Positions 8,657 through 56,710 of a DNA stretch of 64,000 nt are shown piece by piece. The stretch is from Octopus vulgaris. Lineage: Eukaryota. The position numbers and the translations under genes were made by a program. Positions within the stretch are counted from its first letter, which is position 1. The number at the start of each line of letters is the position of its first letter. The DNA is taken from the NCBI GenBank assembly GCA_951406725.2, contig OX597817.1, forward strand, positions 19,530,001-19,594,000, in the 5' to 3' direction. The notes under the pieces are model-generated. The model did not search any database, was not told where the DNA came from, and saw only the letters and a list, made by a program, of their open reading frames with translations.

Positions 8657-8780
8657 TTGTGATGTGTGTGTGTGTGTGTATGAGTGTGTGTGTGTGTATT
8701 TATATATATATATATATAAATATTATTATTTCTAAGTCACTCTAAAGCAGACTACGGCAGCGGTACTGGATATTAACAGC

Positions 8781-9052
8781 TATCGCCAAGCTAATATGGC
8801 AGTCCATAAATATAGGACGAAAGCTGCCGTTAATTAGCTCCAAGTCGCCATCACCTCTAGAGCTATATGACACACGAACCTGTGTCCATTGTAACCTTCG
8901 AACAGGGGGAAGCGGCTGACTTCCCATGTTCGAAGGTTATAAGGGACACAGGTTCGTGTGTCATATAGCTAGCTAGAGGCGATGGCCTCTTGCAGCTAAT
9001 TAACGGCAGCTTTCGTCCTATATTTATAGACCACCATATTAGCTTGGCGATA
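8781..9052. mobile_element. Palindromic MITE-like fold-back element (~130-bp arms, ~9-nt loop)
   Basis: tatcgccaagctaatatgg...gaacagggggaag and cttcccatgttc...ccatattagcttggcgata are reverse complements. TA at both ends. Confidence 0.75.
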
Positions 9053-9179
9053 AATATATATATATATATATATTGTTGGTGGTGTGATCGAAGGTGACTT
9101 TTATTTGCTTTTTAAGGCTATAGCCAGCCATTCAATTGAGACTCACATCACTGTCACCAATCATGAACAATGTTATCGT

Positions 9180-11889: not shown

Positions 11890-12500
11890 AAGAGAATGAC
11901 AAAAGGTAATTTGGTCACGGTAGGATTTGAACTCAGAATGCAAAGAGCTTTAAGACATACAACAAACCTTTTTGTGCAATAAGTAGCGATTTTGCCGGTT
12001 CGCCGCCTTTGCTTTCGAACTTTGGCACAGGCCAGCAACTTCAAAGTAGGGAGTAAGCCCTTTACATCGACGCCAATGATCAACTGATACTTATTTTACA
12101 GAATCCGAAAAGATGAAAGGCAAAATCGACATCAGCGTTATTTGAACTCAGAACGTAAAGACCGACGAAAAGCTGTTAAGTATTTTGCCCGACGTGTTAT
12201 CGATTCCGCGAAATCATCGCCTTTGAAGCCATTTACTAATATTATTGATAGTAATAATTCAATATAGTAATAGTTCAATAATTGTCTCTGATTTAGGGTG
12301 AAGTACAAAAAGTTTGAGCGGAGGGAGATAATCGATTCCGGCGAGCCCATTAGTTGAATTGCTTTTTTATTTTATTTTCTTGATCCGAGAAGACGAAGAC
12401 GGAATCTAAACTTCGTGCAATTTGATCTCAACTCGTAAAGAGTCACAGCAAAGGTAGTAAATATTATTTCCGATGCTCAAAGGATCTTACTAATTTATCA
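11890..12500 (-). mobile_element. Cluster of degenerate SINE family 3 copies
   Basis: Repeated atttgaactcagaa and gaaaagatgaaaggcaaa...cgac motifs homologous to 34413-34639. Similar relics at ~27275-27450 and ~45245-45420. Confidence 0.6.
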
Positions 12501-13809
12501 CCCTTTTCATATACATGTGTTTAATTTAGATATTTTGAGAAGATGGGTTTAGTTAAACCGCCCCTCAATTGGGGGTTAAACCGCCCCTCAACACACTTCA
12601 GCTGCTAATTTTTTTGTGTCTCCATTTTATGATCTTTTATCTTCTAATTATTTCGGTCAATAGAATGTGGTCATGCTGCAGCACCACATCGAGAAAATAT
12701 TTTGGTTGAAAAACTCAACCCCAGTATATATATTTTTTTAAGACTGGTAATTATTCTATCGTCCTCTTATGACGAACCGTTAAAAAGATGAAGATTGATG
12801 TGAACCTCAGTGGAATTTGAAGTCAGAATGTAAAAATCAGATCCAGTACCACAATGGATTCCTTACCGATCCTTAATCTTTTCTTTCTCCTCCAAAATAA
12901 TAACAATAGCATTTTTTTTTTCTAGATCATGGCGGGTTATATCGGCATCAAGAATAGATTACTACTTCAATTTATCGATCCTCGGATTGACGAAATGCAA
13001 TTTGCCTCGGTCTAATTTTAAATACCAGCATAAAAGAAGGTAGTTATAAACGGGCATTTTTTTTACCAGTCCATCACACTGGGAACAGGAATAGAAAGCA
13101 GAATTTAGAAATTCAGGTTCTGGTTGTTTGCTCGATTTAATCTTGTATCGAATCAATTTATGTGACATACTCATTAGAAAATGATTAACTTTTATTCTAT
13201 TTCAAAATACACTCCCACACACATACACACGCGCGCGAGCACACACCAAACACAGGTGAATATCGTGACAGGGTGATGATGAAGATATAATGAAATTATG
13301 AAAGTTGAAAAAAGAGACGACGATATTAATGATATTGAATCAAGTGTCCACGACTATAACGCCGATCGCAAATAAATATATCATTGTCATTTTCAGCTTT
13401 AACGACAGCGTTAATATGTCGATGGTGAATGTTGTCAACAATCATGACTGCTATGATGATGATTTGGGTGTTGGTGGTGGTGGCCATGGTCATGAATGCG
13501 ACTGTGATGCTTCTGCTTTTGTTAATGTTGGCAACAGGATGTACAATAAAGATCATCACAGTCAATAATCTTATTACTAATCAAATTAATTGTAACTATT
13601 ATGAAGATAAATATGAAGATTGACAAAGATGATTAGTATGAAATCTTGAATTGAGAATTTTAAGAACAACATGAAATGTGAAGACTGCGAGGGTGGTTAT
13701 AATTAATGTCGGAGATAAATATGACATCACAAATTATTGCAAAAATAAAGACACATTATTTACATTATTTACAATTGACGGGTATTTGTCCTCGTCTTGC
13801 TTGTTGTAA

Positions 13810-13853
13810 ACACAACGTTTCGGCTGATATACCCTGCAGCCTTCATCAGGTGT
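13810..13853 (-). ncRNA. Minimal type I hammerhead ribozyme (Penelope type), intact core
   Basis: Minus strand: ACAC-CUGAUGA-A-GGCUG-cagggUaUaU-CAGCC-GAAAC-GUU-GUGU. Stem I and II pair; stem III is the palindromic AACGUU. Confidence 0.8.
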
Positions 13854-13924
13854 CTTGGGGAAATTTCGAGCCTGAGTTCTCATTCCTAAGGTATTTTTCG
13901 ATGTTGTTATTGTTGTTGGTATTA

Positions 13925-14000
<76 letters not shown>

Positions 14001-14018
14001 CATTATCATCATCATCAT

Positions 14019-14098
<80 letters not shown>

Positions 14099-14163
14099 CA
14101 ACAACAACAACAACATCGAAAAATACCTTAGGAATGAGAACCCAGGTTCGGAATTTCCCCAAG

Positions 14164-14207
14164 ACACCTGATGAAGGCTGCAGGGTATATCAGCCGAAAC
14201 TTTGTGT
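14164..14207 (+). ncRNA. Minimal hammerhead ribozyme copy with a stem III mutation
   Basis: acac ctgatga a ggctg cagggtatat cagcc gaaac ttt gtgt. G>T at 14201 relative to the inverted copy. Confidence 0.65.
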
Positions 14208-15242
14208 TAACAACAAACATTGTAAATAATGAAATTAATGTACATAATTACTCATCTCTTAAATATAGAATTGAAAATAATGATAGTAACAACATTACTT
14301 GGCGTAGTCTATTGTCTTTATTGGTTGATGATCTTTTAACCGTAGGCTGTTTCGGATGCAGCAGGCCGTTGTTTGAATTCTTAAGTGCAATAACCGGAAG
14401 CATTGTTTGAAATATACTGTTTATCTCGGTGTAGCTGACGTTCATATCTACTGCCAACTCTATAAAGCAGCGGTGATACATACGGAGAAACATGTGAGAA
14501 TCTGAGTTTAAATTTAAGAATCATGTTATTGCGATATATCTTATGATTTGGGATACGTAGAACTAAGCCAATAAATGTTCCTTCTTTCTGGTTCAACTAG
14601 TGCCAAATAGTGAGACATCACGTACTTTATATAGCCTTTTGACTCATCAAAATTTGCAGCTAAATTACGCTGAAAGTATACAAATGCTTACCGAAATTAG
14701 AAAGAAAATTCTTCTTTAATCCTTGATATGTGTGGCCAGAAAAAATTAAATTGAAAATCATATTTGGTATGACATTGTGAATAAGTCTCTTCAGTCACAA
14801 GTGACACTGAATATGCAACAATAATATTTTCCATGGCAATACTGAAAATAATAACGGTGGTTTGGGCACCACAGTAGCAAAACTGTGCCGAATCCGTCAA
14901 CATTTTATTGTATCTCTTAGAATTACAGAACAATTCATTTTAACCTCATTTGCTTCGGCCCTAGAAAAAATAATTTATTGCAGTGAGCAGATTTATATAA
15001 ACACTGTTCATAGTTATTACCGAAGGATTACAGCTTACAGGCTTATACCTACCGGGATTATTTTTTCCTTTGAATCGGGGCAGCGGTTCGGGAGTTAAAT
15101 ACAGCATCAAAGCGGCGAAATATAACAAACTGACATGTATACGTACATATTTGTATACGTACATCCATCCAGATCTCTGAATCCTTTATTTTTTCTAATA
15201 TAGATTATCTGTACATTATATCCAAACCTTTTAATATATAAT

Positions 15243-15289
<47 letters not shown>

Positions 15290-15321
15290 TTTATTTTAAG
15301 CAGCAGAAAATTCAACAAAAT

Positions 15322-15359
15322 CTGTTACTCTGAGTTTCTCGTTGCCGTTCATCAGACAG
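15322..15359 (-). ncRNA. Minimal type I hammerhead ribozyme at the 3' end of Penelope element A
   Basis: Minus strand: CUGU-CUGAUGA-aCG-GCAA-CGa-GAAAC-UCAGA-GUA-ACAG. One mismatch at the base of stem II. Confidence 0.7.
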
Positions 15360-16380
15360 TTTTTGCTAGAATGGAACATATATATTAATTCAATCTATAC
15401 TCTTACAAACGCTACACCTTTAAAAAGAAATGGACTTGTTTGATTGGCCCTTTAGAAAAAAACGGTCAATCTTCGAGCGATAAACAAAAAGGTCAAAAAT
15501 ATATGTATATAAATATAAAAAACTTATAAAAATTATAAAATCCGAGGAAAAAACCGAGGAAAAAACCTATTGCCGTTAATGAAGACAGTACAAATTAATG
15601 CATAGAAATTAAACCTGTTATAAATACTGCAATACATATTTATATTAAAATCCACATATATATATCAACATACACAAAAGGATGCGCGTAAACGCCATAC
15701 ATACATATACAGACGTATGAATATGAATCTAAATTATACACATAAAAGCATGTGTACATATATTCACGCAAACCGTCTCGCACGCAAGCTAAAATTCATC
15801 TATGTAGCAATTCTCATATACTGAGCAAGGAGGGGGAACGAAAGAAAGGGAAAGAGAGAAAAAAGAAACGAAGGAGGGGTGGGGAAAAAAACTTGTAGCG
15901 ATATTATTGGCATCTATAGAGGCCAGTATACATACACAAGTTTGAATTGATACATATACATACCGTCGTGTGTATGCGTGCTTAAGCACAAGCATACTTT
16001 CACTTACACATACACATATACGCATGCTTACAAATACATATGCTTTGCTATACACAAACTTATATAAACATTCTAAATTTGACAACATTGCTTTTTTTAA
16101 AAAAACATTGCTTTTAAAAAATGGGTGCATTAATAAAAATATATACGAAAGACATATAAAATAAAATAAAATAAAATATAACATCCTATTTTGGGTCATT
16201 TATAAATAATCAAGGTAATATAAATAATCAAGGTAATCTTATGCAATACAATAACATGAAAACAAAGTTTGTAGGTTTTTCCTAATATATATGTAGAAAC
16301 AATAAGACTTTGCTATAGGTCCGTCGTAGCGCTCAAGAGTCAAAATCAAAATCAAAAAATCAAAATACAAAATATATACT

Positions 16381-17478
16381 CTATCCATATGGTATATTTA
16401 TATTCGACATTTTAAATTTAGCCGTGTGCCTACATAAGTTCATTAATTCACTTCTTTGATTCAAAGAATTGTTGTCTTTGAATAATATGTGCATTTTTTC
16501 TAATAAGCAAAGCCTGCACTTGAAATTATATTTGTAAGCTCCATGCCTGTATGGTGCCGCCCTGTCCAGAATGCTCCATGTCACGTTGAAAGGTGGGGCT
16601 TCCTTTTCTTTTAGTTCCCAGACATATTTTGCTAGGCTGGTTTTCTTTCTATTCTCTGGGTATTTAAAAGAATTCTTATGAGAATAAAATCTTGTTTTAA
16701 ATGAATTTTCTGAAGCCCCTGTGTATGTCTTGTATTCCGATGAGCCTTCCACTTGCACCTTGGCTCTATAAACTACTCCTTTCACTAGACATTTCCCTTC
16801 TAACGGACTGGAGCTTTCGTTTTTGCAATTACATTTCTTAATGGGCTCGGCACCATGTCTAATCTCAATTAGCTTCCTATTATGTTGGCTAATGTAAGAG
16901 GCGAAATTTCTGCAACAAGAATAGCTAACCTTCAGGGTTCTTCTATTAAATATTTTGTAGAATTTATGACCCTGCCTAAAATGCTTAGAGACTAATCTCA
17001 AAAATTCTTTACCTATATTAGTCTTTACGGCCAAATTGAAAGCCGGGTTGAACCACAAAACTTTCCTGGTCCTAGTTCTTCGTGCAGCATTATTATTAGC
17101 ATTAAGCTGGTTGAACTGGATCTTCTCCGAGAATCCACTATTCTTTAATGCGCTATCGTAATAAGGTGCAGCATTATGGAATGCTGCCTCGTCCGAAGAA
17201 ATTGAAGATATTCTTCTACCTACATTGCTGACTAAGTTGCTAAGGATAACTGGTGGATGGTTCGAATCTTTGCTAATATACGATAGCTTTTCATTGGGCT
17301 TACGGAAAGGTTTAAATCTATCCGATCTTACATTAAAATTTACGTCTAAAAAATCTACACTATTCAGGTTAGTATCTATCGTAATCCGTAAGCCCATCCT
17401 TTGAAAGAAAGCTATAAGGTCCTTCCTAAGTCTATCTGATTCATGGCCGTTTAGATTATGCGTGGCTATAAGGCCTTC
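16381..17478 (-). CDS. Penelope-like RT C-terminus/thumb + GIY-YIG endonuclease (truncated at the YxDD motif)
   Basis: DEGLIA (from YRDDGL), VDFLDV, SNHPP, VLWFNP, CNCK...CLVKGVVYRAKV...YTGASE..FKTRFYSH, CRLCLLEK...LNQRSELMNLCRH. Confidence 0.88.
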   Translation of the reverse strand, partial: EGLIATHNLNGHESDRLRKDLIAFFQRMGLRITIDTNLNSVDFLDVNFNVRSDRFKPFRKPNEKLSYISKDSNHPPVILSNLVSNVGRRISSISSDEAAFHNAAPYYDSALKNSGFSEKIQFNQLNANNNAARRTRTRKVLWFNPAFNLAVKTNIGKEFLRLVSKHFRQGHKFYKIFNRRTLKVSYSCCRNFASYISQHNRKLIEIRHGAEPIKKCNCKNESSSPLEGKCLVKGVVYRAKVQVEGSSEYKTYTGASENSFKTRFYSHKNSFKYPENRKKTSLAKYVWELKEKEAPPFNVTWSILDRAAPYRHGAYKYNFKCRLCLLEKMHILFKDNNSLNQRSELMNLCRHTAKFKMSNINIPYG

Positions 17479-17671
17479 ATCGGGAAGCAACGTATTTGTG
17501 TGAAGTCAATATTTACAGCCATTTCCAAAAAATAGTGTTGGATGTTTTGCACCCGTATTCAATTATGTGTATGTGTAGAACCATATATTTGTGTGTGTCA
17601 TGGTGTTAATATCTGGGTAAAGGTGTGTGTAGGGTGTGTGCAGGTGTAAGTGTGTTTGTTGTGGGTTCGTG

Positions 17672-19231
17672 TTAGGGGCATGTGTTTAGAAGTGGTCTGT
17701 ATTTATTAATAAGGTGGGATTCCATGGTTATTCGCTGGGTATGAGTGGCATTGTCTTTAAATTTGTAGAGGGGAAAGATTCTAAAATTGGGATGGAGTTG
17801 TGCGGCACAGGTATCAATATGTGCACTAAATGCTATTTTTCTATATTCCTGTATTTTTATTTGGGATCTGTGGACAGTCATGCGTTGGCGGAGGCTATTT
17901 TTTGTTTGGCCTATGTAGTGTTCATTACAGCCCGAGCAAGTTAAGACATATACTAGGTTTTCTGATGCGCATGTGAAGTTGTGTTTTACTCTGAAACGTT
18001 GTCCTTGTTTAAAAAGGAATTCCGGACCTTCTATTAGGTTGATGCATATACCACAGTTGGGTCTATTGCATTTGTTTACTGTGGGTTTAGTTGTTGTGGT
18101 TGGCAGTACTTTGGCATTTGTTAGGATGGTTTTCAATGATTTGGGTTGCCTTTTGCTCTTTATGATTTCGTGTGTTAGGAGGATTTGGTTCATTCTATGG
18201 TCCTTTTGTAATACAGGAATGTTCTGGAGGATGGTGTCAAAAGCTTCATTGTTGAGGGGGTTGTGTGTAGAGATGTATGGTAGAGTATGGGGTTTCGATG
18301 TAACAGGTTTAGGGCGTCTAAGTTCCTGCGTGCTGAGTTTTAGGGCGCGTTGGATCCCATTGTCAATTAGTGACGTGGGGTAATCCCTGCTTGTTAATGT
18401 GCCCTTGAGTTCTTGTAGACGTAAGAGACGGGTGTTTTTATTGGAGACTATAGTGCAAATTCTCTTGGCTAAGTTGTAGGGAATGTTAATTTTAACGTGT
18501 CTAGGGTGGCATGAATTGAAAGGGAGGTATTGCTTGGAGTCTGTGGGCTTGTAGTATATGTCTGTTTCTATTTTTTTGTTGTGAATTTTAATGAGGATGT
18601 CGAGGAAGGGAATTTGTTGAGGGCTGTATTCCATTGTGAAAATAATGTTTGTGTTGAGCCCATTTATAAGAGTGTGAAATTCGTTAAGCTTCTCGACGGT
18701 TTCGGGCCAAAGGATGAAGCAGTCATCAAGATATCTCTTCCAGTTCTTCTCTATGTGTGTGTGGAGAGTGGTGCCAAATTGGTTAAGAACGTTATTATAG
18801 AGGGTGATTTCCAGGTATCCCATGACTAAGTTGGCGTAAGTGGGAGCTGTTTTCGTTCCCATTGCCGTCCCTGATTTCTGTCTGTAGAATTTGTTGTTGA
18901 AGGTGAAGAAATTATTCTCTAAGATGAATTTGAGTCCTTCTAAAATAAATTCCTTTTTGATGCGGTGTGGGAGTTCGTTGGAGTAATTATCCAGCCAGAA
19001 TTGGATAGCTTCTATTCCTAGGTTGTGGGGGATGTTGGAGTAAAGATTGACTACATCGAATGTTACTAGCAGGGTTTGTTCAGCAAGAAGTGTATTGGGG
19101 AGGTGGTTGAGCATATCTAGATCGTCCCTTATGTAGCTTTTAATGTGTTTGAGGAACGGCTTGAGAAGGGTATCAATGAAGTTGCTAAGGCGGTGGGTTT
19201 CGCAAGCGGGACCTGCTATTATAGGTCTCAA
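17672..19231 (-). CDS. Penelope-like reverse transcriptase + GIY-YIG endonuclease (Neptune/Naiad-like Cys-rich linker), open but 5'-truncated
   Basis: LRPIIAG, LVTFDVVNLYSNIP, GTAMGTKTAPTYANL, RYLDDCF, IPFLDI, YKPTDSKQYL, CNRPNCGIC, NLVYVLTCSGC..HYIGQT. The annotated ATG at 19249 lies in the opposite arm and is an artefact. Confidence 0.93.
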   Translation of the reverse strand: MRPIIAGPACETHRLSNFIDTLLKPFLKHIKSYIRDDLDMLNHLPNTLLAEQTLLVTFDVVNLYSNIPHNLGIEAIQFWLDNYSNELPHRIKKEFILEGLKFILENNFFTFNNKFYRQKSGTAMGTKTAPTYANLVMGYLEITLYNNVLNQFGTTLHTHIEKNWKRYLDDCFILWPETVEKLNEFHTLINGLNTNIIFTMEYSPQQIPFLDILIKIHNKKIETDIYYKPTDSKQYLPFNSCHPRHVKINIPYNLAKRICTIVSNKNTRLLRLQELKGTLTSRDYPTSLIDNGIQRALKLSTQELRRPKPVTSKPHTLPYISTHNPLNNEAFDTILQNIPVLQKDHRMNQILLTHEIIKSKRQPKSLKTILTNAKVLPTTTTKPTVNKCNRPNCGICINLIEGPEFLFKQGQRFRVKHNFTCASENLVYVLTCSGCNEHYIGQTKNSLRQRMTVHRSQIKIQEYRKIAFSAHIDTCAAQLHPNFRIFPLYKFKDNATHTQRITMESHLINKYRPLLNTCP

Positions 19232-20718
19232 GCCGTTCCTCAAACACATTAAAAGCTACATAAGGGACGATCTAGATATGCTCAACCACCTCCCCAATAC
19301 ACTTCTTGCTGAACAAACCCTGCTAGTAACATTCGATGTAGTCAATCTTTACTCCAACATCCCCCACAACCTAGGAATAGAAGCTATCCAATTCTGGCTG
19401 GATAATTACTCCAACGAACTCCCACACCGCATCAAAAAGGAATTTATTTTAGAAGGACTCAAATTCATCTTAGAGAATAATTTCTTCACCTTCAACAACA
19501 AATTCTACAGACAGAAATCAGGGACGGCAATGGGAACGAAAACAGCTCCCACTTACGCCAACTTAGTCATGGGATACCTGGAAATCACCCTCTATAATAA
19601 CGTTCTTAACCAATTTGGCACCACTCTCCACACACACATAGAGAAGAACTGGAAGAGATATCTTGATGACTGCTTCATCCTTTGGCCCGAAACCGTCGAG
19701 AAGCTTAACGAATTTCACACTCTTATAAATGGGCTCAACACAAACATTATTTTCACAATGGAATACAGCCCTCAATAAATTCCCTTCCTCGACATCCTCA
19801 TTAAAATTCACAACAAAAAAATAGAAACAGACATATACTACAAGCCCACAGACTCCAAGCAATACCTCCCTTTCAATTCATGCCACCCTAGACACGTTAA
19901 AATTAACATTCCCTACAACTTAGCCAAGAGAATTTGCACTATAGTCTCCAATAAAAACACCCGTCTCTTACGTCTACAAGAACTCAAGGGCACATTAACA
20001 AGCAGGGATTACCCCACGTCACTAATTGACAATGGGATCCAACGCGCCCTAAAACTCAGCACGCAGGAACTTAGACGCCCTAAACCTGTTACATCGAAAC
20101 CCCATACTCTACCATACATCTCTACACACAACCCCCTCAACAATGAAGCTTTTGACACCATCCTCCAGAACATTCCTGTATTACAAAAGGACCATAGAAT
20201 GAACCAAATCCTCCTAACACACGAAATCATAAAGAGCAAAAGGCAACCCAAATCATTGAAAACCATCCTAACAAATGCCAAAGTACTGCCAACCACAACA
20301 ACTAAACCCACAGTAAACAAATGCAATAGACCCAACTGTGGTATATGCATCAACCTAATAGAAGGTCCGAATTCCTTTTTAAACAAGGACAACGTTTCAG
20401 AGTAAAACACAACTTCACATGCGCATCAGAAAACCTAGTATATGTCTTAACTTGCTCGGGCTGTAATGAACACTACATAGGCCAAACAAAAAATAGCCTC
20501 CGCCAACGCATGACTGTCCACAGATCCCAAATAAAAATACAGGAATATAGAAAAATAGCATTTAGTGCACATATTGATACCTGTGCCGCACAACTCCATC
20601 CCAATTTTAGAATCTTTCCCTCTACAAATTTAAAGACAATGCCACTCATACCCAGCGAATAACCATGGAATCCCACCTTATTAATAAATACAGACCACTT
20701 CTAAACACATGCCCCTAA
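19226..20718 (+). pseudogene. Inverted, disrupted copy of the element B RT/GIY-YIG ORF
   Basis: Same peptides as 17672-19231 with CAA>TAA at 19776 and two 1-bp deletions (~20369, ~20620). Confidence 0.92.
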
Positions 20719-21492
20719 CACGAACCCACAACAAACACACTTACACCTGCACACACCCTACACACACCTTTACCCAGATATTAACACCATGACACACACA
20801 AATATATGGTTCCACACATACACATAATTGAATACGGGTGCAAAACATCCAACACTATTTTTTGGAAATGGCTGTAAATATTGACTTCACACAAATACGT
20901 TGCTTCCCGATACAGGCACAAGGCCAGCAGAACTATAAATATTGAAAATTGTACCCACACACACACACATATATGCGCGCGCGCGCACACACATACATAC
21001 ATACAGCTCTCCCTGTTCTAAACGAACTTACTTATCCAGTCAAGCGGAAAATACACTCCCTAACTACGCGCTAAAAAGCTATTTAAAATATCCACATGAC
21101 GTCTACTGACCAGCCTGAACAATAAGAATTTTCAACAACACTATTTTCGAAAATTCTAAACATTCACGTGACCTCTTTATTATGGCCAATAAGAAATTTT
21201 AGGCGGAACACTAGCCAAATTTTAACTTCTCTGGAGCCTTTTTTCTTACCCCAACACCAACTTCCATTCAAACATTCACGTGACCCCTTCATAATGACCA
21301 ATCAAAATTTTAGGCGCGAAACCAAGCAAATCCCAAACAACTCTGGAGCCTCTTTTTTTCACATATAAGAGACAGACTCTAATCTCTCTTTATATTTTGA
21401 TAAGCATAACAAATGCGCAACCGGTAAAAAGAACTTTCACCTAATTAAATTACTTAAATTACTTCAATTATTTGTCAGCATTTTCTTCATTT

Positions 21493-21549
<57 letters not shown>

Positions 21550-21558
21550 CATAAAGGC

Positions 21559-22440
21559 AGAAATTGATATTAATCACTTAAAACCAGTGGCCTAGCATAT
21601 TTTAAAAAATCCGAAGATTAAAAATTTTTACTTACAAAATTTAGAGGAATGACCACTAATAGTGGAAAGCCTGTACGCTAGAAATAGATGTCAATATTTA
21701 CGCATCCATATACGTAAATATTAACAAGTGGCACTAAGTAGTACATAGGTAATCGTTTTTTATTTCATATATTTTCATTTGTCTTTCTTATTTTTACACT
21801 TTGGTTTTTGCTGATTTTTTTCTTGAGAACACTTTCTTCGTGGTAAATGGCGAATTTGACGTCTATTTCTAGCATACAGGCTGTCCACTATAAGTGGTCA
21901 TTCCTCTAAATTTTGTATGTAGAAAAATTTTTAATCTTCAGATTTTTTTAAAATATGCTAGGCCACTGGTTTTAATTGATTAATATCAATTTCTACCCTT
22001 ATTTAATTTTAGATAAAAAATGTTCTCTAGCCGGTAAAGTAACTGCTGTAGTTTATTAACTGCAGAGTAATTTCTGATCTCAGTGCGCTAAAGTGAAGGC
22101 ATTTGAAAGATACACATAAATATAATTTGTGGAGCTTTATACATGCTGGATTTCGGTCGATCGCCCTGTATCTAGTTCTAGAAATTTTATTTCGTAAACG
22201 GCAGACTATGCTGATGATCTTGCAGATGTTTGCGTATCCATATACGTAAATATTAACAAGTGAAACTAATTATTACATAGGTAATCGTTTTTTATTTCGT
22301 ATATATTTAATTGGTCTTGCTTATTTTTATACTTTGGTTTTTCCTGAAATTTTTCTTGAGAACACATTCTTCGTGGTAAATGGCGAATTTGACGTCTATT
22401 TCTAGCATACAGGCTGTCCACTATTAGTGGTCATTCCTCT

Positions 22441-22445
<5 letters not shown>
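21559..22445. repeat. Rearranged repeat: inverted arms 21559-21694 / 21856-21994 plus direct duplication 21705-21912 / 22236-22445
   Basis: accagtggcctagcatatttt vs aaaatatgctaggccactggt. ttgacgtctatttctagcatacaggctgtccacta occurs twice. (TA)n on both sides. Confidence 0.85.
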
Positions 22446-22499
<54 letters not shown>

Positions 22500-22500
<1 letters not shown>

Positions 22501-23145
22501 TATACGTAAATGGATATATAACTTCTGTATCTGTAAATTAAGGCGGCCATTAGTTTCATGGTGAGAAAAGTAGGAAAATATTCTAGTGTCTCAAGCATTT
22601 TTCAAGTTGATAACATGGAGAAAGATGTTCGCCTCTATTTTTAGAAAACACTCTGTCTTCGTTTGTGGGATTTCTAGTAAATTCGCATTAATAATGAATT
22701 CAATGAATCAATGAATCAAGGGACTTTACTCTTTACTGGCATCTTTTGGATGTTTTTCTCCTTTGGTTTTGTCTTTTGAGTAATTGTTTTTTTCTTTTCT
22801 TGTTGTTAATTTCTTTGCATTATTTTGCATTATTTGTTTTATTCTGAGAATGGTGTTCTTGTACTTGTATGTTGAAGTGGTTCGTCATCTGGGCATATTT
22901 CTTCTTTGTGTGAAGTTTGTGTGCTATGTGTGTTCACGTTTAGGAAACGGGCTATCCTGGTATGGTTACCCTCGTCTATATGGGCTCTTCTATGAAATAT
23001 ACGAGTATAAAATACTGCTTGTGTATGCAGAGAGAGATGGATTCATCCCTAATGTTTCAGATGTTATCTGTTGATTGTATAATGTTTAATTTTTCAGTAA
23101 TACAGAGTTCACATTTGGTACCCGTCCTTTGTATTCTTTGTCTTT
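22500..23145 (-). mobile_element. Decayed 3' end of another Penelope-like element
   Basis: Reverse complement of ~23000-23140 translates KCELCITEKLNIIQSTDNI*NIRDESISLCIHK, homologous to KCRLCLLEK...LNQRSELMNLCRH of element A. Confidence 0.7.
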
Positions 23146-23798
23146 AGCGAGTAGGATAGAGAAACGGAAGAAGTCAAGTTACAGAGGAGTGAAGAGAAGT
23201 AAGTAAATGATAGAGGAAGGTATCACTTACTAGAATAAACGGTACAGGATGGTCAACATTTGGGGAAATGAAAGTCATGAAGATATCCATTCCTTACTTC
23301 TCTTCACCCCTCTGTAATCTGTCTTCTTCCTTTTCTCTTTTCTGCTTGTACTTTTCCATGTTTTCCACCCTATCCGGCGCACTCATTATTCCTTCACTAT
23401 TCGGTTGTTCTGCTGACATGTATGTATATAAACACTGACATAACTGGCAAACATAGAATATAATATATGCAGGGAAATCTTAAATACTTCATAACACCTA
23501 TTTATGCATTTGAATGTAATATGGAAATGAAAATTTCAATGGATACGTTGCTAGTTGCGAGTGAGAGCAAGATTACAAGTTAATATAGATTAAGAAACAG
23601 AATTGAATCCCAAAATGTATCAGTTTACAGAACATATCATACAATGACATCATATCCAGGAATGCAGTAAATGAATAATTCGCACAGTTAAAAAGGAATC
23701 CGTGTCATAATTATGAATATATAAGGAACGATGGTATATGTGTGTATGCATGTACGAACGTATGGGTGTATGTATCTATCTATTTCTCTGTGTACCTA

Positions 23799-23829
<31 letters not shown>

Positions 23830-23867
23830 GGGCATAGGAAGACAAAAGATTAAAGATGCCGCCACCC

Positions 23868-24105
23868 TCATCTGGTTTTCTCCCATGAGGTAGGCTCATC
23901 TGGAATCCTTGACAGGAAGAGAACGAGTTTTGATTTGAAGACACCTAGATCCACACCATGCAGGTCCCGCAGGTATTTTGGAAGGATATTGAATAACTGG
24001 AGGCGCTTGAAACACAAGCTGTTGCAGTATCTGGTCCTGTATTTTGATGGAGATACAGGGATTCTTGGCAGTCTGCAGTGGCGTCTCAGTGCCAAAGTTT
24101 GGTAC
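23868..24105 (-). mobile_element. 3' end of a CR1-group LINE
   Basis: LFNILPKYLRDLHGVDLGVFKSKLVLFLSRIPDEP is a typical ORF2 C-terminus of CR1-group LINEs. Confidence 0.65.
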
Positions 24106-24175
24106 AATACACACACACATACACACAGACACTCACACACACACAAACACCGACACACATATATGCACACGAATA

Positions 24176-24223
<48 letters not shown>

Positions 24224-24424
24224 TATATAAGTATACATATATGTATATCTGTATCTATCTATGTCTATCTCTCTAGATATATACATATATATATAAGTAT
24301 ACATATATGTATATCTGTATCTATCTATCTATATCTATATATATATATTTATGTATGTATACATGTTTGTGTGTATGTGTGCATGTGTATGTATGATATC
24401 TATCTATCTAACTATCTATCTCTT

Positions 24425-24460
<36 letters not shown>

Positions 24461-25423
24461 CATATGTATATATGAGCATTTATATGCAATTAAATGTATA
24501 TACACATATTTACAAATAACTTCATACATACATTCACTTCCTCTCTCACACACATACGCAGTTACACAATAGTAGCTTTAATCAAAGATCAAAGTGTAAC
24601 AGCGTAGAGAATAGGCGTCGGTGTCTGCCATGATTGTCGTTGTGTGGACACTTTAAATTTGCGTACATTTTTCTCAGAAAATATCTGATGATTAATGAAA
24701 GAAGGGAAACAATGCAAAACGCATAATAAAACAAATAAAGAAAAACTCCTCTTCCACCAACATCTCAGCCAATAAATGCAACCTCATTAACACAATATCG
24801 GCTTCAGCAAGTGTTACACCCATGACAACATTGTGAATAAATAACAAGACATGTTGAAGGATGATCAACAACATGACTACCACTTTAGTAACAAGAGAAA
24901 CAGTAAACGTATCACTGGCTTGGATTTTAATTAACTGCACAATATCGACTGGTTTGTGTATGTTTATATCTGTTAATGCGCTCCATATTCTTGATTAGTG
25001 GCTCTTAACAATTTGTGACAAATTATTGGCAAAAGAAACAATGGAACAAATAAGAAGAGTACAAATATATAGATTCATTTATTGATTATCTGTATCGTAA
25101 TTGGTAGGCCTCTCCGCATTTACTAATTTTGCTATGACTCTAAATATGCACTTTTCGATATCTCCCTGTCAAACTTTAATATATCTACTGTATTACTTTA
25201 AACAATTTTTCATTGAACACGTAACCTATCATTTCTTTCTTTTGTGATCCTTAGTATTTTTTAAACTCTCCCCGAATTTCTGCCTTCCTCACAATTGTGA
25301 TAATTACCTCTCTATGACTCTGCTCTGCTCCTTCGCCTCCCACTCTCCAATCCGTATGCACTGGCACTCTCTTTCTCTCTCTCACACATATTATGTACAT
25401 ATGTATATATGCATATATAATAA

Positions 25424-25469
<46 letters not shown>

Positions 25470-25525
25470 TATATATATGTATATATTTATATAGGTATAT
25501 ATTAGATATGTATATATAGAAATAT

Positions 25526-25593
<68 letters not shown>

Positions 25594-25704
25594 GCATATA
25601 CATATACATGTATACATGTACGTATATAAATATATGGATATACATGCGCATACACATAAGAATATGTGTGTGGGTTTATGTATGCATGTATATAAATATG
25701 TATA

Positions 25705-25785
<81 letters not shown>

Positions 25786-25786
25786 T

Positions 25787-25857
<71 letters not shown>

Positions 25858-26433
25858 ATTCACTCTGACTTACAATTGAAAATATTTTTTGGGAAACTAG
25901 TCGTACCTTGTTCTGATCCGTATCCATAGCCAGTGTATTTTCGCCTTCATATTACCTCAATTATATGACCTTTCAGTTTTCCTTTCGTATCCTCATTTTC
26001 TCTTCATTAAGTTTTGATCCTTTAGCACGATTACAAATTCATTTCTCTCTAATCTCTCTTCACCTGAAATCCTCTCTTAACAGCACTTACGTATATATAT
26101 CTTATTGCTTTTGTTGAATGTCTCATTTTTTGAACATACATTCTTCTTTAAAATATTAAAGAAAGAATAATAGGTACAGAATACATCATTATGATAATAT
26201 CTTTTCGAAGATATGCAATTAGATGTTATGCGATTATTGACTAGTCAACCGATATTGTTTTTACAATTTTTCTTGTTAGTAAAGAAATAAGGTAATGGCT
26301 AGATGTTTAAAATACTTCTCTGCAAATTGCTCTTAATGGGACGTTAACTGACAATCTACTGAACAGCAAATATCTACGTAAAATAGATGCATACGCACAT
26401 ACGCCTGCTCTCATATAAAAGTAAGAACATACA

Positions 26434-38996: not shown

Positions 38997-41192
38997 TATT
39001 TCAAAACATTTGCCATAAAGGCAGTACACAGATTAAGTTAGCTTTGCGGGCTGGACGAGGACATTAATGAAGTGAATGATAATGAAAGAAAGATGATAAG
39101 GATGGGAGAAGACAGAAAGCGCCCGCCGACTTTTGCTTCTCTAAAACATTGTTCTTTTTAAAAAGATAAACACAAAACGAGCTATAAAACCTCTTACAAT
39201 TTTTCCCAATTTTTGGGCTTAGCAGTCCATTATTAATACAAAACGAGGTATTAATCCTCTTACAATTTTTCAATTTTTGGACTTAAGTCCATTACTAATA
39301 ATACATATCGTCCTCGAAATAGCTTGTGCCCGCGCCCTCCACCATCAACCACGCCTCCCTCAGAACGTAGTCAAGTTCCGAGTTCGCGTCGCCCGGGACC
39401 AAGTTATAATCTTCGTTGAGCTCCTTTAGCCCTAGCGTCACGTCGAACGCCACGGCCTCCACAGCTACCTGCGGAGGCCATTCGGGGTCCTGTGTGAAGG
39501 CTAAAGGTGCTCCCTTGTGGTGCTCTTCCATCACTTTTTCAATTTCTCCTCCTCTATAGAAGAGGACCAACACATTTAGTTCTTTCGTTGGCGGCACAGT
39601 TTCCGCCAACGGTATTCCTTCTCTTGTCGGTGGCACAACCCCAACCGACGTAGTTCCGCGACATTCCGGTGCTACACTGACAGCCGGTAATGTCCCGTTT
39701 TTCTTCCTCTTTTTCTTTTTTTCCTTTTCAACTGAGGGAGGGTGCGTCTCCTCCGTGGCTGGAAGATTCGCCTTCCTCTCCTCATCCCTATTATCCTTTG
39801 GTGAGCACCCGTTGTTGCTCACCTTCCTCTTTCGGCCTCTGTTTGAGGAGTCCTCTGCTTTCTCGGCCGTTATCGTTCCCTCTTCTAGAGGGGTTTTACT
39901 TAACTGTTCCGGGATCCTATTTTGTTCCCGAGGACAGTTCTTCTTTATGTGGCCGGACTCCAAGCACCGATGACACTTAGGGGGGCGACCCTCAAGCATC
40001 ACCGGGTACCTGCACCCGGCCATTTTCAAAAAATCTGGAAGAACCAGATTGGCTGATTGTGTCCACAGAGTCAAAATTGCTTTCGACCCAACCCAAGCAG
40101 CCGCAGGAAGAACTTTTACATTGAGGAGCTTAGTTTCGCTGTCACCCAGACCCCGGCGGATAGTCTCCTCTATCCACTCGGGTTCTATGTCGGGTGGCAG
40201 TCCGCAGATCCAAGCTTTCATCAATTTCTTTTTTTGTACGTGGGCAGGAATAAGATTTCCTTACCCTCCAAGGGTTTGCTAGCAAATATGCAAGCCTTTT
40301 CAGGGGTGTCAAATAGCAACCACACCGTTGCATATTTGACACCCCTGGAAATGAATTTAATTGTTGGCAAATACTCTTCCAACTCCTCCTCAATTGCCGT
40401 CTTTTCGAATAGGGCGATGGTGTCAAGTGCCTTGGAGTAGGTTCTCAACACCACCGTCCTATCTTCACGGTCTTTTAACCACTTTTTGGGTGGTATGATT
40501 TCCCACTCCAAAATTTTGTTATTTTTCATTGCCATGTTTTTTTAAAAATATATTCAAATTAAACTCAAAAGCAGGAAGAAAAAAGTTCAAAATTCTAAAT
40601 AAAATTTGATAGATTTTTGAAAAAACAAAAAGGAGAAAGCACAACAGAAGGGAAGAAATTAACGGAAAGTCGCAATAAAGAAAAAAAAACAAAAGGGGGG
40701 GGTTAAATGAAGTTCAAAAGAAAGTTAATAAACAGAAAAAACACAGCAAAAATATTCTGGCCTTGCGGTACTCCCGGCCTGGGTTGAACCTGGAACGCCG
40801 CAACTGCAACACAACCTCCACAAAAATGGGTCCGAAAGGTAATCCAATAGTGGCTTATTTTTATAATTTTCTTGCGAAGTAGTAAAACACAAGCAAACAA
40901 ATTAATTTTTGCGGAGGGGCTACGCCTCCTCAAAAAGCACAATTCTCACTAAAGAGTGAGACCTTAGACACGACAACAGGCAGAGAAATATATCTGAAGT
41001 AAAGTGAAGTCTATTACCCGCAAAAAAATATTAATGCTAGATAACGTTAACTGCTAAATAACATTAAGCAAGCAATAAACTTCGCTATGCTTCTAAAAAT
41101 ACAGAACGTCTTACCTGTCACCGAGTCAAAAAGTTCAACATTTCACGTTCAAACACGTGACATTTGCAGGAGCAAAAAACAACACGTCTGTC
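38997..41192 (-). mobile_element. 2.2-kb ORF1-only (gag-like) retroelement with a target-site duplication
   Basis: Flanked by tggtaaacaagctactt (38980-38996) and tggtaagaagctactt (41193-41208). T-rich 5' UTR, one ORF, 3' UTR ending in AATAAA. No RT or endonuclease. Confidence 0.78.
39295..40535 (-). CDS. ~413-aa L1/Tx1-ORF1-like protein (RRM-like region, CCHC zinc knuckle, basic linker, C-terminal domain); one frameshift in an A-run near 40230
   Basis: ORFs 40221..40535 and 39295..40224. Motifs FISRGVKYATVWLLFDTPEKA, ICGLPPDIEPEW, GRPPKCHRCLESGHIKKNCP. Confidence 0.75.
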
Positions 41193-48199: not shown

Positions 48200-48254
<55 letters not shown>

Positions 48255-48352
48255 CAATATAGGGTGGCAAAAAATTTCGTAGAATTCTTTTGCCACCAGC
48301 GGCCTAGTGGGAAAAAATTAAATAGTCATAGACCATTTATAAATTCAACAGC

Positions 48353-48578
48353 AAAATCAAGGAACGGCCATAATAGGCCATTCACCCACTAGAAATAACA
48401 GCCAAAGCTTCAACTGCAAAACAACATTAATTCCGCAAACCAGGAGAAAATTAAAAAAATTAAAAACAGGGTAAATGTTTTTTTAATTTTCTCCTGGTTT
48501 GCGGAATTAATGTTGTTTTGCGGTTGAAGCTTTGGCTGTTATTTCTAGTGGGTGAATGGCCTATTATGGCCGTTCTTG

Positions 48579-48583
<5 letters not shown>
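48353..48583. repeat. Near-perfect hairpin with ~105-bp arms between (TA)n tracts
   Basis: 48353-48459 is the reverse complement of 48478-48583. Confidence 0.9.
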
Positions 48584-51418: not shown

Positions 51419-51892
51419 CTGCGCACACAAACCACACCACTCCCACACAAACTCTCTTATATATATATATGGAAGTGTCCTTGTCCGTCGTTCTCTCTGT
51501 CTGTCACTCATATTCCCCGTGCCTGCCTGTTCGTATTTCCTCCCCTTCCCAGATATCAGCCACCCTCATTATGACACATTTCCCTGAAACCACCACCTTT
51601 GCACACGCATCATTTTATTATGTAATAGTCCAACCCCGTAGTCGTTCCATTATCGATTTTTATTGAAATCCAATCAGCTTATAATTGAAATGGATGTTAG
51701 TTCAACGTGTATACAAAGTTTGGTGAAAAATATTGGTTCCCTCGTTTGAGCAGCAAGATGGTAAAATTGACAGATAGACAGAAATTGCTATTCATATATA
51801 TATACCTATATCTATATAAAACTGAGAATGTGTGTCTGTTTGTCTGTCTGTGTGAATCCCTAAAACTTGGGAACTACACAACCAATTTCATT

Positions 51893-52915
51893 AATAAAGG
51901 TAACTCTGCAGCCGAAGTGACTCGAAACATTACTCAGTTTATGGGAAAGTGCTTGAGTGAAAGAACGTGCAGGAGATCGTTTGCAAAATTGAAGATGAAT
52001 ATCGAACAGGACGTCCAGTTGAGTTTGATGATAAGCTCCTTGAGGCATTACTTGAAGAAAATCCGTCATTATCAGTTGAAGAATTGGCAATAAAGCTTAC
52101 TTCAAACCATACAACAGTTCATCGTCATCTTCAACAACGTGGAAAGATTCCTAAACTTGGAAAATAGGTGCCTCATGTATTGTCCGAAAGCAACCGCAAA
52201 TCCCGAGTTGACATCTGCTCTTCTCTCCATTCTCGCAAACTCATTTCACCCTTTTTCGATAGACTTGTGACGAAAAATGGATTTTCTATCGAAATGTTAA
52301 ACGTCGTAAACAGTGGCTTGGTAAAAGGGAAAATGTTCAACCACAACCTAGAAGGGAACTTCATGGGAAAAAGGTTCTTCTTTCTATCTGGTGCGATTGC
52401 AAAGGCGTAATTCACTTTATATTGTTACCACCTAATGCAACAATCAATGCTCAAGTCTACTGTCAGCAATTAGAGGTTTGAACCAAGCTTTGAAGGAAAA
52501 AAGAGCCGCTTTAGTTAGTCGAAAACGAGTAATGTTTCATCAGGACAATGCGCAACCCCACACTGCAAAGATCACATCACAGAAGATCGAAGAGGTCGGT
52601 TTGGAAAAATTTCTTCATCCAACTTATTCTCCCGACCTTACTCCTTCAGGATACCATTTGTTTCATAGTTTACATAATTATTAGGGGGACACAACTTTCG
52701 CAAGCCAGGAGGAGGTCGAACCTGACATTTCAGAGTTCTTCGCTTTGAATCCAAAAGAGTTCTACATTGATGGAATTAAAAAGCTAGTAAACAGATGGAA
52801 GTAAGTCATAGATAATCAGGGAAAGTACATTGATGATTAACTTTAAATTAAATATAACATTTGATCACTTGTATTCTTTATCCAAAATTCGGAAAGAACT
52901 TATGGGATGACCTGA
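51893..52915 (+). mobile_element. Decayed mariner transposon, 5'-truncated and joined to a Helitron 5' fragment (51811-51892)
   Basis: RTGRPVEFDD, *VPHVL (WVPHEL), FHQDNAQPH, YSPDLTPSGYHLF. 3' TIR-like ttatgggatgacctga. Confidence 0.9.
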
Positions 52916-53754: not shown

Positions 53755-54319
53755 TTGGGTTGTCCGGAAAGTTCGTGCCGATTTATAGTAGCTTAACTTT
53801 CGACTTATTTTAGAACATGTTTGAGTCCATAAAGTAGGATTTGACTACACCTCCATTTAGAGCACAGTTTAAGCTATCTTTTCGTGGAAGAAGGTTTATG
53901 TTCCTATAACCTGTGTTAATTCTGTAACTCTTTAAAGTAAAATATGAGAAAGTTCATTTTCGGCACTTGATGCTTTGGGAACCAGACAAAAATTGCTGCA
54001 GCTCGGCTAGGATGTGACCCCCACCCTCCCTATTTCGCAGATATTGCTCCTTCGGATTTCCACTTATTCAGGTCTCTGCAGAATAGTCTTAATGGTGAAA
54101 ATTTCAATTACTTAGATGACGTAAAAAGATACCTTGATGAATTCTTTGCCTTGAAACCACCCCAATTCTGGGAAGAGGGTATTTTCAAGGTAAAGGAAAG
54201 ATGGAGACGTATTGTGCAACGAAATGGTTCAGATTTGGTTCATCAAAAATGTAATGGCAAGTATTTATTGGCCATTTTCTTTCCTTTAAAAATCGGAACG
54301 ACCTTTCCGGACAACCCAA
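53755..54319 (+). mobile_element. Internally deleted mariner with intact TIRs and TA target-site duplication
   Basis: TA|TTGGGTTGTCCGGAAAG...CTTTCCGGACAACCCAA|TA. Remnant DIAPSDFHLFRSLQNSLNG. Confidence 0.9.
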
Positions 54320-54889
54320 TATAAACATAACAATGAAATACGAATATAAACATGAAAAATAAAAACCTGAATTGAAAGAGGCAATTAAAATTCTTTTCCT
54401 AACCTGCAGCCGTTTCAGAAAAGTGGTTGTACGAAGTAATCGAAATTCAGCCCTCCTTCCTCAGGGTTCCTTTCTCGAGGTAAAATCCACCAAAAAGCAG
54501 TAAGGCACTACATGGTGAGCATTCAGTTGGTGAAAGTTCAGTTTTTGAGTATCGATGAATAAGTGACAGCATTATTTGAGGTCCTAAAGTTTTTTCAAGA
54601 GGATTACCACGTTTAAATAAGAAATGAAAATCATTGAAAGATTAACTTTAGTTAATCATGCAAATAATAGCCAATGGGAATAGTCCACTCTGTATACTAC
54701 TATAAAAAGAAATTGATTACAGGTTTGTGCATAAGTGTTCATTGGATCTAATGATCTAATTGGATCGTATTTTCAAAAAGCTATAAAATTTTATATTCTA
54801 AAAAATTAAATTTTAAATTTAAGAAAATTATAAGACGCTAAATATTTATGCTTACAACATACTAAAATGTCTGTAATTTTATTTAATAA

Positions 54890-56710
54890 GTTGAGTTATT
54901 GAAGTTGAGTTGTATTTGTGAGTAGAATTTATTGTTGATTACTGCTGTTGTTAAAACCGTTGTTAATATCGTTTATTATACCGTTAACTTTTGTGTTGTT
55001 AAACTTTCTCGTTGAGGAAAATGGAGAAGCGCCAGAGGGCGGCCACAGCTATGCAGCCGCAACTAGAAGAGGAACAGCGAAGGAAATCATTAGAGACCTT
55101 TGAAATAAAGGTAGAGCCCAGGAAGATGAAGACTAGTGAGAAGCTGCTGAAAAAGGAAGAAGGAAAGATAAAATCGACGCCACCAGAGGAACTAATGGAC
55201 AACGTTAAGAAGAAGGCGGTGACCTACAAGACCATGAAGGTTACCACAGGGTGAATCGAGATAGCAACTGTGGAGGAGATTGAGAACGTGCTGGAAAATA
55301 TGAAAAACGTAATAACATTCCGAGCAAGAGGCAGAAAATATGCCACTGTAGATGTGCGTTTCACATCGGAAGATGAAGCGGTGAGGCATGCGACGGAGGC
55401 AATCCACTCAGAAGAGTGGATTCCTCTGCCATCCATTTGCGGCAAACGTGTGGTGAGAGTTCGGGTAGGCCAAGTGCCCTCTGAGTTTGAGGAAGCATGG
55501 CTAATGATAGCCATTATATAAGACATGGAAGACGAGGCCAGAATACTGAAGGCCACCAGATCGAACATGTTGGACTACTGGGGCAATGGGTTGGAGCTAA
55601 CAATCCGGGCAACAGTGGAAGACTTGAATAGAATAACAGAGGATATAGTGATAACTGACGGTTTTGCACAAAGAATGAAGGTGGTGGGAAAACCACCTGT
55701 GTGTTACGAATGTGGCGAAAAAGGACACATGAAGGTGAGATGCCCAAGAAAAGAACAGAGAGAGACTACAGAAAATGTCGAACAGGTGAGAATAATGAGA
55801 CAACAGCGGTAGAAGAATTCACACTAGTGGAAAGAAAAGAAGGAGGAGCGGTAGGGTAAGGCCACCACCGACTAATCAGAAAAAGAAGAAAGAAGAAATG
55901 GAAAAGAAAGAGGTAACGAGAAAAAAAGATGATAAAAGTGAGACGGAAAAGGAAAGGGAAAAAATAATTGAGAAGATGTGTGAAAAAGAGTCAGAGAAGG
56001 AGGAAACAAATATGAAGATGATAGGTAAATTGACGGAAGACTCAGGAATTCAACTACAAGAGGACGAAACGGAGAAACTGGTTACAGTAAAGACGGAGAA
56101 AGAGAAGGTCCTAGACTTAGAGAAGAGTATAGAGGAATCTATAATAGGAAGGGTAGTGGAGGAAGAAAAGAGAAAGCCGAGCGGAGGGAGTTACAAATGG
56201 AATTTCGTGACCTATTTCAAGAACGAGGAGGTGGAGAAAAAATCGTAAAGTTCAAGCACGTTATAAGGGTAAAGTTACCAAACGACGTGTATCTAGAGAG
56301 TGTGAACGCCGTCGTGGTCGATAGAAAAACCTATTAGAAACTGGGAGACATGTGCGGAAGTAAAATTGACCCAGCCGGAGCACTGGTGGAGTTCAATGAG
56401 CTGCCACCAGCATGAGACGTTAAAGAGGAATAAAAGTAAAATTAATTGTATTTAAAAAAAAAAAAGAAAAAAGAAAGGAAAATGTTTTGGAAAAAAACAT
56501 AATTAAAGAAAGAAAAAACAATAGATAGTGACTATGTGTACAAGTGTTCAAATGGTACTGCATGAGGAGTGGGGCCCATGCAGTCATTCATCTTTCATTA
56601 GTATATAATATTCATACTCATTCATTTTGTGTTTTTTGTCCCCATTGTGGTGTTGTGTCTATCCTTGTAGTGTCCCGTCTGTGTTAGTGGCCTGAGTGCC
56701 TAATAAAGAA
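54890..56710 (+). mobile_element. Second ORF1-only element, decayed
   Basis: T-rich leader, interrupted ORF 55021-56415, 3' UTR ending cctAATAAAgaaa. No RT downstream. Boundaries are approximate. Confidence 0.65.
55021..56415 (+). pseudogene. ORF1-like RRM + CCHC protein pseudogene, homologous to 39295-40535
   Basis: FRARGRKYATVDVRFTSEDEA, VGQVPSEFEEAW, GKPPVCYECGEKGHMKVRCP, YFKNEEVEK...VNAVVVD. Several stops and frameshifts. Confidence 0.78.

Follow-up and report, generated by a model that had tools for sequence, protein, structure and literature searches.

How did two copies of the same part of one retroelement come to lie head to head in the genome of Octopus vulgaris, and did a single antisense strand fold back and copy itself to produce them? 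The question is raised by a palindrome in a stretch of 64,000 nucleotides (GenBank assembly GCA_951406725.2, contig OX597817.1, positions 19,530,001 to 19,594,000 of the forward strand), hereafter called the window and numbered from its first letter. The palindrome consists of two near-identical shortened copies of a Penelope-like element placed head to head, with their 3′ ends outward, and joined at a six-base complement. It looks real and young, and its layout is one already known for such insertions, the architecture itself being ordinary. The likeliest single mechanism is the formation of a fold-back hairpin with a 5′ end that was free or trimmed by about 40 nt, an origin to which we give slightly less than an even chance.

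The coordinates of all the features are collected in Table 1. A preliminary description of this DNA had given arms of 1688 and 1686 bp, a 59-bp spacer and complementary hexamers, all of which agree with the letters of the window, as does its claim that the spacer continues the reverse transcriptase (RT) frame of the left arm: arm, spacer and hexamer form one open frame of 519 aa starting at the LRPII motif. Four differences separate the arms: the substitutions 18616/19776 and 17577/20813, and two single-base losses, near 20368 and 20617, that affect homopolymer runs of the right arm; none of the four is an A-to-G change. The right-arm stop at 19776 and both losses are absent from the main family contigs described below, with respect to which the right arm has three private changes and the left arm one.

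Short-read contigs from four of 20 runs (X1, X10, X3 and X16) were compared with positions 19130–21480, the left flank lying outside this stretch; the contig listing is partial, with rare variants dropped, and the runs may come from other individuals. Family contigs diverge from the window directly after 19231 (two of those listed in X1 and five in X10), the first loose contig base differs from the window base at the junction, and the diverging letters, read on the other strand, encode the residues preceding LRPI in homologues. The divergent first base together with the native upstream residues means that the hexamer is native and the overlap exactly 6 nt long. Contig records 1 and 24 hold the native order of hexamer, spacer and second hexamer, and the presence of TTGAGA at LRP in the family, which had been proposed as a check, is thus confirmed by the family contigs. 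The hexamer does encode the L-R of the motif, as had been noted, but the description of LRPII as conserved does not extend to its first residue, which is L in 51 of the 110 matched homologues and F in another 51.

A stem of at least six bases occurs in 1.5e-4 of random pairs of end and site, and of the 1453 3′ ends that are possible 20 would find such a stem with a loop of up to 100 nt; the observed site is the sole 6-nt partner of that particular 3′ end on the 1753-nt strand. Because this native partner is the only one and rare by chance, the junction is guided by native homology. Some other joints in the contigs were tried as fold-backs and rejected: 19130/19263 and 19167/19226 represent the native order, and 19178/19239 and 19179/19332 are read as diverged relatives in native order. 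A 3474-nt contig of X3 has the normal unfolded order of the element.

The outer ends of the two arms are not equal. The right limit of the element had been placed at 20911, but in family contigs the element continues to at least 20948: record 4 of X1 (20799–20948, depth 279) and record 12 of X10 (20832–20948, depth 2909) pass 20911 without difference and at the depth of the open reading frame (ORF). Since each of them holds exactly six further letters inside the masked stretch, the family end would lie near 20954, before a CA-rich microsatellite. At its outer end the right arm thus carries terminal family bases missing from the left arm, 37 of them shown and about 43 by inference, and the left arm ends 37–43 nt before the family does. 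This tail sequence was found nowhere else in the window, and the search for a target-site duplication at the palindrome gave only 6-mers out of register. Breaks or loose ends at 20911 are absent among the listed family contig ends, with contigs in X1 and X10 unbroken over this position, and 20911 is, by this weak indication, unlikely to be a recurrent start site. One-sided tails of 30–40 bp have been described for endonuclease-bearing Penelope-like elements (PMC8557442; PMC3846280); the comparison with this typical length is subject to the family end lying inside the masked stretch and to 21012–21499 being possibly part of the element. The repeat at 21012–21499 contains an internal 113-nt duplication with CACGTG and CCAAT-like motifs, and its depth resembles the element's.

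At 20400 both arms have G, against C in all the contig depth of X1, X10 and X3 (no depth is listed there for X16), and such a shared rare allele is expected if one arm copied the other. A junction of like shape is present in X16, in which a 109-nt contig runs antisense to 19942 and then sense from 20052, leaving a 104-nt loop and an overlap of 3 nt, CTA, that fits both sides. At 140, its depth resembles the values of other minor variants in X16; it was not chosen for being a palindrome, and it is read as genomic. Independent truncation points would fall within 110 nt of each other in only 6–12% of cases. Among the 11 joints listed, which bear on the suggested survey of other copies for snap-back geometry, it is the sole one of this kind. 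The family contigs suggest a young family with many copies: in X10 and X16 the element exceeds the lowest minor contigs some hundred-fold in depth, depth being no copy number.

On the other side, the palindrome abuts a Hydra-like Penelope element. The last three bases of the left arm supply the first Asp codon of the YRDD motif of this neighbour and, past two mismatches, four further bases match, so the left junction looks homology-guided, as judged from the letters, and would suit a terminal join. The second Asp of YRDD is replaced by Glu at the junction; YRDDGL is present in 62 of 94 homologues of the neighbour.

The plus strand carries the spacer in antisense, so that in a fold-back the left arm would be synthesised first and then serve as template for the right arm. 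No copy can extend beyond its template at the outer end, and here the right arm is the longer one, so a snap-back of complementary DNA (cDNA) anchored at the target is insufficient. The preliminary description had proposed that the nascent cDNA snapped back on 6-bp microhomology and copied itself; the native microhomology guiding the junction stands, but the self-copying as written does not agree with a right arm that is 37–43 bases longer. In the fold-back that we favour, an antisense strand, which may have been cDNA or antisense RNA (the sequence fits either), would have halted inside the RT gene, and its 3′ end would have folded onto the native six-base complement 59 bases away and been extended into a hairpin, left arm first and right arm as its copy, with the plus strand of the window probably representing the hairpin strand. 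The 5′ end of the hairpin would have been trimmed by about 40 bases, before or after genomic joining, through endonuclease cleavage, resection or a later microhomology deletion. Its 3′ end, with an overhang of about 43 nt, would have been joined at the microsatellite, and the recessed 5′ side may have been joined to the Hydra-like neighbour via imperfect homology (GAT..AGGC) in the YRDD codons. Four observations favour this origin: the rare allele found in both arms, the short X16 loop, the left join with its apparent guidance by homology, and the passage of contigs over 20911 without a break. For the inverted junctions of Penelope, self-priming on an antisense template was put forward in 2013 (PMC3846280), and cDNA snap-back junctions have been observed for R2 insertions (PMC11371274). 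The making of inverted ends and tails in Penelope-like elements is called unresolved in two papers (PMC8557442; PMC11167929).

Several observations weigh against the fold-back. The tail belongs to the arm that is the copy in this scheme, which necessitates the extra trimming step. The 6-bp stem with its 59-nt loop lacks stability by itself, with an energy of +0.3 kcal/mol, and is absent from the minimum-energy fold, and the shortness of the loop is weak evidence as the locus was picked for being a palindrome; in three distant metagenome loci the offsets are 0.7–1.6 kb. None of the listed contigs of the four runs crosses the centre of the palindrome. The rare allele could also be shared if two RNAs came from one source copy, by gene conversion or by polishing cross-talk. 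Nor does the junction by itself record the apparent fold-back named in the preliminary description, because two annealed cDNAs or a central deletion would leave the same junction.

In the first of these alternatives, each end of a double-strand break would have primed one cDNA, at neighbouring start sites separated by about 43 nt, and their TCTCAA/TTGAGA 3′ ends would have annealed and mutually primed the second strands. This is similar to twin priming, but with both primers at the 3′ end of the element; in classical L1 twin priming the parts of one RNA that are inverted do not overlap, whereas the octopus palindrome doubles the same part. Paired cDNAs explain the one-sided tail on the spacer-less right arm without an extra step. 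Precedents are available, since the PAc protein of Anolis cuts both target strands and extends them, begins at two neighbouring internal sites that bound a tail and is a predicted dimer (PMC11167929), and two primary RT ends are reported to be joined in L1 translocations, once with 6 bp of homology (10.1101/2024.12.14.628481). On the other hand, two stops within 65 nt are needed here (4–7% if independent, the locus being a selected one), two stops within 110 nt are needed again in the X16 junction, both RNAs must carry the rare G20400, and the family contigs listed have no break or loose end at 20911. We consider this origin rather unlikely, although it is the closest rival of the fold-back.

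Palindromes are known to lose their centre by deletion. A longer head-to-head palindrome that lost its centre between two TCTCAA direct repeats, one in each arm, would yield exactly the same junction and leave the 59-nt spacer that stabilised it. Where the spacer is short or absent, long palindromes are subject to breakage and rearrangement, which a spacer of at least about 50 nt reduces in eukaryotes (PMC7999016), and Penelope inverted junctions are often situated at palindromes at the 5′ end of the pseudo long terminal repeat, pLTR (PMC3846280). With only four differences between the arms there has been little time for such an event, which is moreover an additional one that still requires a first mechanism, and the X16 junction would need the same history; this explanation is improbable.

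A misjoin during assembly, with a fold-back chimeric long read of one copy bridged into a second, 99.8% identical copy and the flanks coming from different loci, is very improbable, for although no listed contig of the four runs crosses the centre, no target-site duplication was found and two of the four arm differences are 1-bp homopolymer losses, a typical long-read error, the join uses the single best native microhomology, the rare allele is common to both arms and a like junction occurs elsewhere in the family in independent short reads. A pure mirror-read artefact is excluded, as the right side continues into the family tail and not into a mirror of the left flank.

Taken beyond this locus, the fold-back and the paired priming lead to a general proposal, namely that target-anchored snap-back is not the source of Penelope-like inverted insertions, which would arise from a free hairpin whose 3′ overhang measures about 40 nt or else by priming in pairs at the two break ends. 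The proposal is based on the position of the tail on the spacer-less arm, and we regard it as doubtful, with roughly one chance in its favour to three against. The locus offers a clean junction, a verified native microhomology and an asymmetry that excludes the simplest model. One locus is insufficient to decide the mechanism, and the family is apparently young and multicopy enough for a genome-wide test of it.

Table 1 Features of the palindrome and its flanks, in positions of the window
Feature	Position	Strand	Description
Neighbouring Hydra-like Penelope element	15289–17478	-	Cut inside its own YRDD motif at the left junction
Left arm	17479–19166 (1688 bp)	-	5′-truncated Penelope-like copy, RT core to 3′ region
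Open 519-aa frame	17672–19231	-	RT (YLDD at 167), CX4CxxC linker at 388, GIY-YIG with CxxC between GIY and YIG
TTGAGA	19161–19166	+	Ends the left arm on its inner side; pairs with the junction hexamer
Spacer	19167–19225 (59 bp)	-	Native in-frame RT sequence, belongs with the left arm
Junction hexamer	19226–19231	TCTCAA on +, L-R codons on -	6-nt microhomology
Right arm	19226–20911 (1686 bp)	+	Inverted copy; one stop (19776), two 1-bp losses
One-sided extension (tail)	20912–20954	+	Family sequence absent from the left arm; contigs reach 20948, probable end about 20954
Compound CA/TA/CG microsatellite	20955–21011		Likely right target site; masked as repeat
Multicopy repeat ending at (TA)n	21012–21499		Further 3′ region of the same element or separate family

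The earlier assignment of the DNA to Penelope is upheld by the occurrence of RT together with a GIY-YIG endonuclease at the C terminus in one frame, with Pfam matches in the 519-aa frame to RVT_1 (E 3.9e-7) and GIY-YIG (E 2.6e-6). The linker finger, CNRPNCGIC at residue 388, fits the CX2-5CxxC pattern of Neptune and Nematis, and the CCHH finger of the endonuclease has two cysteines between GIY and YIG, VYVLTCSGCNEHYIG; in 30 sequences C432, C435 and H454 are invariant and H471 nearly so. By the linker finger and the CxxC, the element is probably a Penelope-like element of the Neptune/Nematis type. Named homologue matches include those from Argonauta and Octopus; full-length homologues have about 750 aa, the best showing 63% identity, and in comparison with them both copies lack roughly the first 240 codons. 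An inverted 5′-truncated second copy, which is the pseudo-LTR trait of endonuclease-bearing Penelope-like elements, is present.

A hammerhead core of the form CUGANGA..GAAA was not found in 20700–21520, nor is any hammerhead family among the Rfam matches in 12000–26000, which are all below threshold (microRNA families and CrcZ) and fall on simple repeats and hairpins. Core-like matches occur somewhere in six of seven close loci; in one of them, L008, the match is situated about 200 nt beyond the ORF match, and the window has only a loose stem-loop at the corresponding place. According to PMC8557442, a hammerhead near the 3′ end is typical but not defining, Naiads being without one.

Neither arm can make the full protein, and the product of the palindrome is most likely an inert by-product. 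The formation of cruciform DNA, which had been anticipated, is unlikely by our analysis, for the 59-nt spacer argues against it: frequent fork stalling was not seen in eukaryotic cells at inverted Alu repeats with a 52-bp spacer, and wild-type yeast maintains a 280-bp spacer stably (PMC7999016). A read-through transcript, if made, would form 1.7 kb of double-stranded RNA and might then, as had been suggested, feed siRNA production or editing. As a host feature the palindrome is probably inert. No clear host exon was found by the Pfam search of 98 of 188 candidate frames, which returned transposon pieces and weak sub-threshold matches.

The Hydra-like neighbour possesses a 365-aa open frame (16381–17478), a hammerhead-core-like motif at 15355–15335 whose fold has a z of only −0.39 and so no support, and a likely 3′ end at (TA)n 15242–15288. 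Its endonuclease has no CxxC between the GIY- and YIG-like motifs and so shows the Hydra trait "no CCHH", while in its linker, compared with the Hydra pattern CxCX5C, the residue five places past CNC is Ser, a position at which Cys predominates among the homologues shown.

Among the other features of the window, a small head-to-head stub of Penelope type lies at 13775–14232, with 209-nt arms around an (ATT)n/(AAT)n centre, each arm containing a hammerhead core made up of CUGAUGA, a 5-bp stem II and GAAA; its left arm has 23 extra bases, after which the arms match again for 13 bases. Small palindromes at 8719–9054 and 48250–48583, with spacers of 7 and 18 nt, are each situated between two (TA)n runs, and in both one arm reaches to a TA run whereas the other is longer on its outer side, by 63 or 104 bases, the same theme of asymmetry. 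The region 59019–61013 is an array of 12–13-nt units whose orientation flips near 59980, giving a degenerate 2-kb satellite palindrome. At 21546–22445, 150-nt inverted ends with internal duplications stand between two (TA)n runs, possibly representing a miniature DNA transposon. Broken mariner-type transposases are found at 51701–52681 (Pfam HTH_48, Transposase_1 and DDE_3) and, as a piece recognised by eye, at 53971–54321; zinc-knuckle (CCHC) gag-like frames at 39298–40541 and 55003–56334, in opposite orientation, are likely remnants of retroelement ORF1.

Among relatives in metagenomes, 18 of 80 loci have an inverted repeat of at least 40 nt, and none of the 80, which are mostly on short contigs, has a near-perfect palindrome. 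Three of them (L017, L038 and L058, with 27–29% identity) have an upstream inverted ORF-internal piece, cut by the contig start. An exact 23-base pattern had no match in metagenome contigs; genome contigs gave one weak 31-residue match only, and viral contigs none. Two loci show further arrangements: L073 (1–8263), with a distant RT match, has 1244-nt identical inverted ends and a further internal inverted repeat of 400 nt, and L002 (1–5354), a related element, consists of a 3699-nt unit with a 1655-nt identical direct overlap, pointing to a tandem or circular form, with a hammerhead core situated some 110 nt beyond the stop. On junctions of this sort in cephalopods no dedicated paper was found in a search that covered the subscription literature thinly.

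An inverted 5′-truncated copy is among the standard traits of the 5′ end in endonuclease-bearing Penelope-like elements as presented in PMC8557442, and long tandem or inverted structures reaching into the ORF are described in PMC3846280. With these structures and the three distant loci having ORF-internal inverted segments, the earlier characterisation of the arm as extreme is overstated. Pen2a_Av and Pen3 of Adineta vaga (PMC3846280) and the elements of Craig et al. 2021 (PMC8557442) have the same head-to-head orientation with 3′ ends outward, and inverted copies of this type share with the octopus palindrome a one-sided extension, of about 30–40 bp and probably of like length in octopus, a microsatellite neighbourhood and the want of a clear target-site duplication. 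In contrast to the Adineta vaga-type copies as described there, both octopus copies are cut in the RT gene, are of near-equal length and form a near-perfect palindrome, there is no full-length copy or direct pLTR, and the junction is a 6-nt coding-region complement and not a pLTR palindrome. The Neptune and Nematis clades of PMC8557442 have the same RT, CX2-5CxxC linker and C-terminal GIY-YIG with CxxC, but no canonical hammerhead core was found in the 3′ region of the octopus copy. PAc, a Poseidon element of Anolis, would be alike in that the octopus tail, too, would lie between two RT start sites and that both target strands are extended, yet belongs to a different clade without the linker finger (PMC11167929). 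R2 snap-back (PMC11371274) and L1 foldbacks (10.1101/2024.12.14.628481) are alike in cDNA self-priming or in the joining of RT ends by short homology; R2 snap-back, as reported, ends in a join to target DNA, whereas the copied arm in octopus passes the outer end of the first arm. Particular to the octopus locus are the near-symmetric pair of copies cut in the RT gene, the verified native overlap and the tail on the spacer-less arm.

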